Virus record (IMG/VR): IMGVR_UViG_3300045988_046889 | DNA from: a virus | Length of the DNA stretch: 64,000 bases | Direction: 5' to 3' (one strand) | Part shown: positions 56,801 through 64,000 of the stretch, piece by piece | Layout of the letters: every line of letters begins with the position of its first letter | Position numbering within the stretch: position 1 is the first letter of the stretch | The notes under the pieces: generated by a model | Databases searched by the model: none | What the model was told of the DNA's origin: nothing | What the model saw: the letters and a program-made list of their open reading frames with translations, nothing else | Position numbers and translations under genes: made by a program

Positions 56801-59800
56801 TTATTGCTTGAAATAAGGTATAGCCAATTCAGGGTCTATACCTCTTGTAATAGTACTTCTCATAGGAACTAATGGACTTTTCATTAAGAGCCTATAAGCC
56901 TTAGTCTTATCCTTAAACTGTCCTGACTGTATAAGAGCATCCTCACCTGCAAACACTTCATAATTCATTGGGTTAATCAACCCAACTAAATCTAAAGTAG
57001 ATTGAATTGTCTGGACGGCTGCTGCTGGGGATTTCATAATTTTCAATCCTTCATCAACCATAGGCTTTCCTGGGATTAAAACACCAGTTTCTGTCTTTAG
57101 TCTTCTAAGTTGATATTCTACTATCTTAGTAAGCCAAGGTCTGTTATCCTTATCATCCCAATCAATCATTCCAAGTACTGCCACTATCGCTAAATAATGG
57201 GCAACCTCAGTAACTGCTCTTTTAATATTAGCCTTTTCAGTTTTTGATAATTTGTTCCAATCTGATACTATATCAAATTGGGACTTTCTAAGTTCCTGTG
57301 CCAACTGCCATAGAAACCTGCCTGTAGTTATGTAGTAACCTTCAGTCCAAGTTTGTAAGTCCATATTGTAAGAAGCTGATTTGAACCTTCTGTTAAGTGA
57401 GGGTTTCACCCACTTCCTAAACATTATTGCCATTCTACCCATAGCCAGCCTTTGTACTGCATTTCTATCAGCTTTATTATAGATACCATGCATTCTTTGG
57501 TTTATGGCAGCAGACTTTCTACTGAAAGCTATAATATCATCCTTTGTGAATGCAGAGCCGTCTTCCTTAGTATAACCTTGCTTTAATTGAAGTTTAGCAC
57601 CTAACTTCTTATTATTCTTATCAATAGGGACTACCTCCATAGCATCCCATAAAGATACCATTTTGCCATCAGGAGCCTTCATTTTATAAGCATCTGCAAG
57701 TGCCAATGAGGTTCTATTCTGCATCCAATGTTCTCCGGCATTATTCATAAGGAATAATGCAGATGTACCAAACATTCTGCTAAACCATGTCTTCCTGTCA
57801 AAGTTTACTTCCTTGACATCAGTTTCATATTCCTGCATAACATTGAATAGTTCATCCCACAAAGCAAGCTTGCTTGTTTTCACCCTATTGCCAATCTCTG
57901 CAAGGAATTCAGGCAATGCCTGACCATAGTTCCTGTCAGCCCTAAGAGTATTGGATTCATTGAAGAACTCTCCGGAGAAAGACTCAATCCTCATCATCAC
58001 TCCACCAGTAGCCACATTGGAGATACCAGATAAGACGTTAATTGCTAATGTGTTAAGAGAAGTCACCCTATTAACGAAATTAGTTACCTTTCCTTTATCA
58101 ATCTTGGTATTGCCAAATGTTCCCCCATCTGCCATATACCTGCCATATACCTGCATCTCAAAGAAATCATTTAATCTCTGCATGAATCTTGTCCCATCTC
58201 CTGACTTAGTCAATACTGATTCTACCTTTCTTCCTACAGATTTGAACTTCTCTGCAAGAGGTTTACCTCCTCTTGTCTGTACTATTTCCCTTTCCCTTAG
58301 CATATCCCTGCCAAGTTCAAGAACATCAATTACCTTACCCATCTCATTGAAATCATTTGCCATGGCAGCATAAGCTGTAAGGGTAGATGTCACATCAGTA
58401 GACAGGTCATTGGGGCTTTCTCCCTTCTTCATCTTGGTATAATAGATGGGAAGTACCTGCACTTCTCTGCCTTCAAAGTCTTTCACAGTAGCCCTATCAC
58501 CAAACTCGGTATCATCTGTTCTTCTGATGAACTCATCCTTTATGCTTTCCCATATTTGTTTTGCTCCGGACTTTACACCATCAGAAGACTTTACCCTTTC
58601 AAGTAAATCTTTTCTAATCTTAACTGCATTGGTTAAGGTAGTATACTTGTCAGGAAGGTATGAATCTAGCTTGGCCTTTATATCCATAACCTTATTATAG
58701 TACTCTTTCTGAGCAGGATTCAGGTTTTGATAAGCCTTATTGCCATAAATGGATACTTTAGGTTGTTTCTTTCCATCAACAATCTCCATATTGGCATCAA
58801 ACCAAGCCTGTCTTTCCCTCCTATACTTTTCTGCATAATCACCAACAGGATTATGCCCATACTTCTCATTAAGAGCCTTGAACATTTCCCTAACTTTCTC
58901 TTTGAATAAGCCTTGGTTAATCTCAGATATATAGTTACCTGTCAGATTACCCTTGCTGTCCCTTTCAAACATCCAGTCAGTATTCTTTATACCAGCTTGT
59001 TCCAGCTTAATAGCAGCAGCTTGTAACTCCTTCATGACATTAATAGTCTCAAGCCTTGCATTTTCCTTACTCTTCTTGACAGCTTGGTCCATTACCTTCA
59101 ACATATAGTCTGAGGAGTCTGCCATGGAATCAAGCCACCTGTCAAAGAATGATATATCATTGTCAGCCACCTTGACCAAGTCCTCGGCGGTCATGGTTTT
59201 ACCCTTAAACTTACCAAAGGGGACAGTAATGCTTTCCCCTACAAAGGGCTTGATAAAATCAACAAAGAGAGGCATTGATACATTATTATATTTGACAAAC
59301 AGGTCACCAAGCAATGTACTTGTATTGTCAAGTGCTGCCCTTACTCTTTGACCATATCTGTTGTCTTCATATTTTTCCTCATCAACAAGGGATTTTCTTA
59401 TGTCATCAGTAATGTGTTTGTAACTATATAAGTAGTTCCTCACATCCCTTAATACCCTAGCCCTCTCATTTACATCAGTGGCAGGAGTATTCTGTAACAT
59501 AGTAAGCCTGTTATTCACTTTAGATAACTCTTCAAGTGCATTCTCTAGGAATGTATAAATGCCTTCTATCTCATTATTATCAGCCAATTCAATATCCAAC
59601 CTATCAATAAGGAGCCTTTGGTTGGCACTAAACTGGCTATTGGGGTTTCTTTTTTCGTAAATCTTCAGCCTCTTTAGCTCATTGCCAATGATTTCCTGAA
59701 GTAGTTTCTTATCTCTAGTTATCCTCTCTGAGGTATTATAGAATACTCCACTTGATTTGATATTGTCAACATTGATAGTCTCATCCAAGCTTCCATCAAG

Positions 59801-63800: not shown

Positions 63801-64000
63801 AGCTTGGTCACATCAAGTTGGTGAGTATTTGGGTCCATGAGAGGCTCATAGAACTCTCTGCTATATGCAGGCATATAACATTCAAGGTACTTGATTCTCT
63901 TGTTGGCACCTTCACCTTCAAATACTACATGAAGCTCATCAGTCAGGCCATAATCAGATACCTGAATCAATGCTCCACCTCTAATCTTCTGTTTAGTGAT
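60860..64000 (-). CDS. virion-associated multisubunit-type RNA polymerase, C-terminal >1036 aa (N-terminus beyond the window end)
   Basis: Reading frame stays open to the window edge (the TTG at 63970 is only the ORF-finder's start); SGSDFDVDKMYIMLP (DFDVD at 63638..63652) matches the metal-binding NADFDGD-type motif of the double-psi beta-barrel in cellular RNAP beta-prime and crAss-like/YonO-type phage RNAPs. Confidence 0.5.
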   Translation of the reverse strand: MTKQKIRGGALIQVSDYGLTDELHVVFEGEGANKRIKYLECYMPAYSREFYEPLMDPNTHQLDVTKLPEDLRKLIGYRVPTEDKYSMAPLYIKGFLPQQNGSAIMLPAEITTLSGSDFDVDKMYIMLPESNISKEVNWKKFTDLVMQNQGFRKWGIDNVKMTIDQIRNGNISFSEDTPEMHLFDYYNDIKDNLMETKIRKVKYNFSKSPQENSLEARNNLLIDMMYGVLTNANTASKILNPGGFDYQKRSARIMTILNDSYESDLSTALQAIGVKLDKTVQENGKSYPKSIASYLFDLDLDTLDKLVEKTKTKMDPLSPRTQVMLHQQNMTGAKLIGIYANHNANHALMQHTQLSLDEENGSFTLNGKRLTSLHDVMNKDKEFISKNNAGFLAASVDNVKDPVLAALNQNTFTADASMLLSRLGYNPIEIGLLMMQPIVQEITQTYFRESREGKGKDTIIDEVLDKYKEKAALNSDLTYDNYKNNSFYIEELADNIMLAKEAVTDRSQTSDLRKIEYYQKQVAVGYLFKRVMNSANALGQLVQATRSDTQGGAAGPTIADTELKIQKVKDLLDQIESNDKFPLKNANAIYDDLLADNPDTDTLRERLLSAPLPFLQAFYTLGLQTSERMLGSYFPQYTESFRAVIDSLRDLTKTGRLNVKTMNSVYNDLLAYIMSKNGFFGSELVVNPDSEAGDIIVSSSEKRKDFINNFPAYFKKVVTDNEDIADLEFIKRLRVIRANDTNPVDTVVFKNVGQLSPTLRERYMRDWTSLLYMSNPEAQRLALNLFRYSYYRNGFAFGPNTFIHLAPVAVRNIIPEYISTLRSLTLSNDDYSQFVDQYVYNHLDNRKLVPEVPDTASVQFIGEDNEIKDVVTFVIDGDATFGDKKVIKKRIDTPDGPVYDFFKYIGKRIRGGYVYYKLLSLGTEQANVATYERIEPLGFRNSFIEYEYGKDAEEMETVIDKNRKDYDPYADTLSRFDDGNVEVDYDSMPDYQDIPQVDVDAFQQVYGTPLDTSAPKTDDITSIQPNTEYKDENGDSICGAPTLYEL

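Follow-up and report, generated by a model that had tools for sequence, protein, structure and literature searches.

A probable virion RNA polymerase gene and its conserved partner gene facing the structural module of a Kahnovirus oralis-type crassvirus

Introduction

The right end of the IMG/VR virus record IMGVR_UViG_3300045988_046889 carries two long minus-strand open reading frames (ORFs) that point towards the structural genes of the same phage, which raises the question of what these genes encode and whether their orientation is peculiar to this DNA. Here, "the window" denotes the whole 64,000-nucleotide (nt) stretch that was analysed, and the region under study is its right end, from 56,801 to 64,000. 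An initial annotation had proposed that the ORF running off the window end encodes a single-chain virion RNA polymerase (vRNAP) of the crAss-like type, coupled to a gene for a protein of 1351 amino acids (aa). The evidence assembled below indicates, with high confidence, that the region comprises the 3' part of a Kahnovirus oralis-type vRNAP gene, followed by the gene of a conserved cargo partner of the Gp49/gp65 family.

Region 56000..64000 shows 97.0% nt identity, at 100% coverage, to crAssphage cr85_1 (NC_055883), which is classified within the Crassvirales (Steigviridae, Asinivirinae) as Kahnovirus oralis. Judged by this identity, the source phage belongs, as a strain, to a human-gut crassvirus species of the K. 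oralis type that has already been classified. Two metagenome contigs carry the exact 1351-aa protein (exact-sequence look-up), and contig L007 (ENA ERZ27261318 k119_126390; 98,077 bp) is 99.97% identical to window 55001..64000.

The virion RNA polymerase

On the minus strand, the frame is open from position 64000 to a TAA stop at 60862..60860, i.e., over 1046 codons, and this fragment (60860..64000) represents the C-terminal 1046 aa and the stop of an RNA polymerase (RNAP) whose N-terminal ~1363 aa fall past the window end. The frame includes SGSDFDVDKMYIMLP, within a wider stretch that reads LSGSDFDVDKMYIMLP, and the DFDVD codons stand at 63638..63652, exactly where the initial annotation had placed an Asp triad. 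The fragment is 96.7% identical in aa sequence to the "putative RNA polymerase" of cr85_1 (gp053), and a tblastn search with it returned 101 phage records, nearly all of them crassviruses labelled 'putative RNA polymerase'; further orthologues are crAss001 Gp50 and phi14:2 gp66.

The identification is carried by the comparison with gp66. Among all chains of the Protein Data Bank (PDB), phmmer returned one real match for the window fragment, 6VR4, which is phi14:2 gp66 (E=1.9e-24). In this alignment, GSDFDVDKMYIMLP pairs with GSDFDIDKMYVMLP, that is, with gp66 1361-DFDID-1365; the motif sits in a 180-residue aligned block centred on the catalytic DFDID (domain E=8e-17), and collinear blocks continue downstream as far as ~residue 2034 of the 2194 residues of gp66. 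The latter contains two double-psi beta-barrels linked by a Connector (residues 1095-1238), with DFDID in one of them; each aspartate of this motif is needed for RNA synthesis, as judged from Asp-to-Ala mutants, and recombinant gp66 by itself makes RNA (Drobysheva et al., bioRxiv 10.1101/2020.03.07.982082). DFDVD (residue 1480 of the 2409-aa full-length chain) is hence read as the catalytic, metal-binding Asp triad of a beta-prime-like double-psi beta-barrel, as had been proposed.

Since the window fragment begins at ~gp66 residue 1229, where the Connector ends, the window holds the DFDxD-bearing barrel and not the other one. The remainder of the gene was recovered by the extension that the initial annotation had suggested as a check: contig L007 carries the complete polymerase gene, encoding 2409 aa, of which the C-terminal 1046 are identical to the window fragment. 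This full-length protein matches 6VR4 with E=1.5e-32 (phmmer, PDB), and its aa 956-1613 match gp66 874-1523, a span that includes the Connector and, therefore, marks the chain as a complete single-chain two-barrel enzyme; by sequence alignment, both predicted barrels and the Connector lie within one polypeptide on L007. Neither the fragment nor the full-length RNAP gave a usable match in Pfam or PHROGs. Likewise, the phmmer PDB results, in which 6VR4 was the only return, held no match to YonO (no YonO sequence was compared directly) and no sequence-level match of the window RNAP to QDE-1 or to cellular multisubunit RNAPs.

The C-terminus of the polymerase (...ICGAPTLYEL*; 60860..60900, minus strand) resembles that of crAss001 (...ICGAxTLYEL) and is unlike that of the nearest relative, cr85_1, in which a TAA lying 27 nt earlier (17090..17147) shortens the RNAP by 8 residues and lengthens the spacer to the next gene to 30 nt. 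In PQ006092.1 (bajarodcaudo virus 1, from pocket-mouse faeces; 83% identical), the polymerase match is split in two pieces at 53626..57687, and an 'endonuclease' is annotated beneath, which suggests that the RNAP gene of that phage is interrupted by a homing-endonuclease insertion (intron or intein).

The partner protein

The second minus-strand ORF (56801..60856) encodes, as initially annotated, a 1351-aa protein coupled to the RNAP. It is classed here as an RNAP-associated virion cargo protein, and is the orthologue of cr85_1 gp054 (96% identity) and crAss001 Gp49 (70.7% over the full length), with 27% identity to DAC15 gp077. More remotely, aa 376-1339 match phi14:2 gp65, the "RNA polymerase associated protein" (BLASTP E=9e-31). 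Its homologue is a separate gene in every relative examined. Mass spectrometry of crAss001 virions revealed gp47, gp49 and gp50, which were placed in the cargo zone of the capsid and were argued to need partial unfolding for passage through the tail (Bayfield et al., PMC10172136).

Searches beyond this family gave little: Pfam and PHROGs held no usable match to the 1351-aa protein, and phmmer found nothing in the PDB. The protein is mostly alpha-helical. The model of its N-terminal half has a predicted local distance difference test score (pLDDT) of 68 and matches generic helical bundles only, and no usable model (pLDDT 37) was obtained for its C-terminal half, the most widely conserved part; sequences of 77-96% identity went into these predictions. 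The top 19-residue hydropathy windows (1.37-1.57, at aa 937 and 1214) are borderline, i.e., too low for transmembrane helices. We infer that the 1351-aa protein may be a non-catalytic helical partner that aids packaging, ejection or refolding of the polymerase, which is the weakest step of the interpretation.

An alternative role has been proposed for the phi14:2 protein and its orthologues, which were said to harbour a protease domain of the zincin type (Drobysheva et al., bioRxiv 10.1101/2020.03.07.982082): the 1351-aa protein could be an active zincin-like metalloprotease that activates a packaged, self-inhibited polymerase or digests peptidoglycan. Indeed, gp65 has HEIMH at aa 245 (LHEIMHDF), and MAFFT sets opposite this motif a segment of the window protein, PEEFAHFA, that is invariant in 28 close homologues. 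However, the segment reads EEFAH (aa 236-240; 60143..60157, minus strand), so that a canonical HExxH is absent from the protein and the first zinc ligand is changed from His to Glu (EExxH) in the window protein, crAss001 Gp49 and DAC15 gp077 alike; the cr111_1 homologue has neither HExxH nor EExxH, and no Pfam peptidase matches the 1351-aa protein. Instead, a canonical HEAFH is present in the Gp47 homologue of this phage and in crAss001 Gp47. A Glu at the place of the first zinc ligand conflicts with the zincin-like domain published for gp65 orthologues and, because the motif is degenerate, the 1351-aa protein is probably no protease; a proteolytic role is improbable. A possible homology between the EEFAH region of the 1351-aa protein and the HEAFH region of the Gp47 homologue was also considered, and no evidence for it was found (profile-profile probability 2%).

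A second alternative holds that the enzyme is encoded in two genes, in which case the 1351-aa protein either split off from the RNAP or serves it as an obligatory catalytic subunit. At the gene junction (60857..60862, minus strand; ...GAA TTG TAA GAT ATG GCA...), the TAA stop at 60862..60860 is followed by a GAT spacer at 60859..60857 and by the ATG of the second gene at 60856. The stop/start overlap initially annotated at 60856..60860 is thus not there; what separates the two ORFs is a 3-nt spacer that keeps them in the same frame. That only TAA and one codon intervene would fit a divided enzyme, as would the database label of the 1351-aa homologue, 'putative RNA-polymerase subunit', and the fusion of the trio of RNAP, Gp49-like and Gp47-like proteins into giant polyproteins in some crassviruses (Drobysheva et al., bioRxiv 10.1101/2020.03.07.982082); upstream of its replication module, cr4_1 encodes proteins of 4491 aa and 1803 aa. 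The distance that keeps the frame is not conserved, however, since the spacer, 3 nt long in the window, measures 2 nt in both crAss001 and phi14:2, 1 nt in DAC15 and 30 nt in cr85_1. Moreover, the 1351-aa protein has no match to gp66 (BLASTP, E<=1e-3) and is clearly similar to gp65, itself a separate gene in phi14:2; it lacks a DFDxD motif; the polymerase chain encoded upstream already spans gp66 nearly to its end; and gp66 alone is active. The comparison with gp66 suggested by the initial annotation therefore separates the two proteins, and of the two options left there for the 1351-aa protein, that of an RNAP-associated cargo protein is upheld by the gp65/Gp49 homology, whereas that of a detached RNAP part falls, as there is no gp66 similarity and the polymerase chain is complete. 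Because it resembles gp65/Gp49 and not gp66, the 1351-aa protein is taken as a separate conserved partner, and a two-gene enzyme is very improbable.

That the two in-frame ORFs are joined by fusion or by readthrough of the stop codon was likewise considered and rejected, as the spacer is out of frame in crAss001. No reassignment of TAA is known in crassviruses.

The naming of these proteins differs between publications on crAss001. One paper names gp49 the 'predicted catalytic subunit' (PMC8375218) and another refers to the gp66 crystal structure as that of 'a homologue of gp49' (PMC10172136). By sequence, DFDVD and the gp66 similarity belong to crAss001 Gp50 (2412 aa), and Gp49 is the gp65 homologue (crAss001 4760..16050).

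Several points weigh against the identification of the region as a vRNAP gene followed by its cargo partner. With no Pfam or PHROGs model, the RNAP assignment depends on a single homologue of solved structure (~26% identity); the N-terminal barrel, beyond the window end, is seen only on the near-identical contig L007; packaging, ejection and activity are predicted for this phage from its homologues; and the models of the 1351-aa protein, whose proposed role is tentative, yield generic helical bundles or low confidence. Nothing was found that contradicts the RNAP identification.

Convergent layout

The layout comparison covered crAss001, cr85_1, DAC15, phi14:2, cr111_1, cr4_1 and two metagenome contigs; the prototype p-crAssphage (NC_024711, JQ995537) stands outside this set. 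In the window, the rightward order is muzzle protein, cargo protein 1, cargo protein 2, Gp47 homologue and terminator, and the leftward order across the convergence is RNAP, Gp49 homologue, minus-strand terminator and HNH endonuclease. Thus, the gene directly downstream of the RNAP is that of the Gp49 homologue, and beyond the convergence point comes that of the Gp47 homologue. The same convergent layout occurs in crAss001 (Gp50 and Gp49 facing Gp47), cr85_1 and DAC15. The arrangement differs in phi14:2, cr111_1 and the suolivirid cr4_1, whose giant genes share the orientation of the structural side and run towards the replication module, converging on it. The initial annotation had set the leftward polymerase genes apart from prototypical crAss-like genomes, a contrast that is real with respect to the latter three phages but does not make the orientation unusual, since crAss001, cr85_1 and DAC15 are alike. 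On the gene orders compared, the inverted RNAP-Gp49 pair is a trait common to several Bacteroides-infecting Asinivirinae genera, including that of the best-studied crassvirus, crAss001.

The co-orientation of the trio in phi14:2, cr111_1 and cr4_1 could also be taken to mean that the leftward pair is specific to this sequence, either as a new rearrangement or as an artefact of assembly, a reading left with practically no room by independent genomes, namely cr85_1, crAss001, DAC15 and two independent metagenome contigs with the same layout, by a GC skew of the inverted block that agrees with its present strand, and by a junction filled with terminators and, in several relatives, the same HNH gene.

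Each of the two converging units ends at a hairpin resembling an intrinsic terminator. On the minus strand, a hairpin at 56773..56798 (11 bp stem, then TTTTTTTATT) lies 3 nt past the 1351-aa stop, and also reads as a hairpin on the plus strand; on the plus strand, a hairpin at 55914..55940 (11 bp, 6 GC, then TTTTATT) lies 23 nt past the stop of the 2521-aa Gp47 homologue. A scan of 9 kb yielded 4 terminator-like sites vs 4.9 in shuffled sequence, i.e., no excess, and the terminator calls rest on position right after the two stop codons, not on number. A comparable hairpin is found in the same gap of crAss001. The earlier description of two units ending back to back (55914..55947 and 56765..56795) holds for the hairpin after each stop, but these lie ~830 nt apart with a gene between them, which that description had missed: a 192-aa HNH homing endonuclease (56109..56687, minus strand) with NUMOD4, HNH_3 and NUMOD1 domains. 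An HNH gene occupies the same gap site in cr85_1 and in some PhiCrAssBcn phages, and crAss001 has there a small 'shock protein C' gene (Gp48); the gap is, therefore, a variable insertion site. The sign of the GC skew changes at ~56000, which fits two opposed transcription blocks of long standing and settled composition.

The structural block and the Gp47 homologue

The rightward block includes the muzzle protein (39317..43678, plus strand; 1453 aa, Pfam crAss_MUZ, E=0), cargo protein 1 (43777..46569, plus strand; crAss_CARG1 and a phage lysozyme domain) and cargo protein 2 (46571..48319, plus strand; crAss_CARGO2), the latter directly upstream of the Gp47 homologue. The muzzle protein harbours the second DFDxD of the window, DFDGD at 42728..42742 (plus strand), which is the exact motif of cellular RNAPs; it was dropped as a second polymerase motif given its residence in this protein. 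By a rough estimate, ~0.6 DFDxD are expected by chance per six-frame window. Because of this chance DFDGD, DFDxD alone is not diagnostic, and the significance of the putative catalytic DFDVD comes from the gp66 alignment and not from the motif by itself. That DFDVD is likewise a chance match in a non-polymerase protein, as the muzzle DFDGD and the missing Pfam or PHROG family might suggest, is refuted almost beyond doubt by its place within the 180-residue gp66 alignment and the collinear blocks downstream.

The last gene of this structural, late unit encodes the third member of the RNAP-associated cargo trio, the 2521-aa Gp47 homologue (48326..55891, plus strand; 45.5% identity to crAss001 Gp47). 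It contains a PD-(D/E)XK-like nuclease region (aa ~1573-1855), the above-mentioned HExxH at aa 2158, a match to the phrog_298 exonuclease (E=4e-9) and an ART-PolyVal ADP-ribosyltransferase domain at aa 2332-2462 (PF18760, E=3.9e-19, above the gathering score). The ART-PolyVal region (aa 2274-2462, about 55145..55711) forms a ~170-aa insertion that is missing in crAss001 Gp47 and DAC15 gp078. With ART-PolyVal and other effector domains joined in one giant chain, the protein has the composition of a polyvalent protein. ART-PolyVal recurs sporadically in other crassviruses, as in the 1803-aa gene of cr4_1 (gp27), where it lies N-terminal to a Gp49-like region, and in polyvalent/DarB-like proteins of unrelated phages. 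These features suggest that the 2521-aa protein may be injected and act as an ADP-ribosylating effector, with a function that recalls T4 Alt.

At the other end of the window, 21 tRNA genes lie at 2411..9245, 20 of them in a plus-strand array (6074..9245), so that a phage-encoded tRNA array stands upstream of the structural module.

Comparison with known systems

The closest known system is cr85_1, which shares with the window the order RNAP (gp053, 2401 aa), partner (gp054, 1351 aa, "putative RNA-polymerase subunit"), HNH gene (gp055, "HNH endonuclease") and a convergent 2518-aa gene on the opposite strand (gp056, also "putative RNA-polymerase subunit"), with protein identities of 96-99%; the polymerase stop and the spacer, described above, set the two apart. 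crAss001 shares the convergent layout, with 63% identity in the RNAP part, but has the 'shock protein C' gene in place of the HNH endonuclease and a Gp47 without the ART-PolyVal insertion. In phi14:2, the proteins are likewise in the virion, the RNAP has a catalytic DFDxD and the partner gene lies directly downstream, whereas identity is ~23-26%, g067, g066 and g065 are co-oriented, and gp65 keeps the canonical HExxH that the window protein lacks.

More distantly, Neurospora QDE-1 and the cellular multisubunit RNAPs have two double-psi beta-barrels and a DxDxD metal site, a likeness linked to the window RNAP only through gp66, to which QDE-1 is structurally nearest (Drobysheva et al., bioRxiv 10.1101/2020.03.07.982082). 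The vRNAP of coliphage N4 (Schitoviridae) works alike, as a giant capsid-packaged polymerase that is ejected with partner proteins and transcribes early genes. In contrast to this functional likeness, no sequence similarity between the window RNAP and the N4 vRNAP was found in this analysis. The N4 enzyme is T7-like and single-subunit, with an unrelated fold. An analogy between crassvirus polymerases and N4 vRNAP has been drawn before (PMC10136315).

A model for packaging and expression

Homology, motif, gene order and terminators were read from the DNA itself; by homology with crAss001 and phi14:2, packaging, ejection and activity may be pictured as follows. The capsid would take up the RNAP as cargo along with the Gp49 and Gp47 homologues and both cargo proteins, 1 and 2; ahead of or together with the DNA, these would be forced through the tail, to refold in the Bacteroides cytoplasm. 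The injected polymerase would then transcribe the phage early genes without host RNAP, as does gp66, an Mg-dependent enzyme, in phi14:2, where early transcription is rifampicin-resistant (bioRxiv 10.1101/2020.03.07.982082). Because the RNAP-Gp49 pair lies at the distal end of a leftward replication/nucleotide-metabolism block, it would be made as a middle transcript, ending at the hairpin at 56798..56773, and the Gp47 homologue would be expressed as the last late gene of the rightward structural block, ending at the hairpin at 55914..55940. This proposed timing agrees with that measured in crAss001, in which gp49 and gp50 belong to the middle genes and gp47 to the late ones, a temporal separation that has been commented on (Shkoporov et al., PMC8375218).

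A further reading, tentative and rather unlikely on present evidence, is that in this clade the RNAP-Gp49 pair was inverted into the 3' end of the replication unit, so that the injected enzyme would read both its own gene and the partner gene in a self-amplifying, host-polymerase-independent manner, with the Gp47 homologue and its extra ADP-ribosyltransferase staying under late host-RNAP control. In phi14:2, the injected virion polymerase itself reads the replication-module unit; should this apply to the present phage, a self-amplifying loop would result. Were this true, the degenerate zincin motif of the Gp49 homologue and the canonical HExxH of the Gp47 homologue would imply that the functions of the trio were redistributed in Bacteroides-infecting Asinivirinae. 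The idea is only partly new: a 2023 review described the middle module as "replication + optional transcription", and transcription of middle genes by the vRNAP was already implied there (PMC10136315).

Significance

The vRNAP block is already known, its genes and leftward orientation being annotated in RefSeq and studied in relatives such as crAss001, whose orthologues have been shown to be virion cargo and whose transcription has been timed; the gain is, therefore, a correct annotation. In this respect the check is mainly negative in value, as the "unusual" convergent orientation proves to be the norm for crAss001-like genera. For specialists there remain some small points: gp49, and not gp50, is named as the gp66 homologue in two papers; the zincin motif ascribed to its family is missing from the partner protein; and the Gp47 homologue of this species has acquired an ADP-ribosyltransferase domain.

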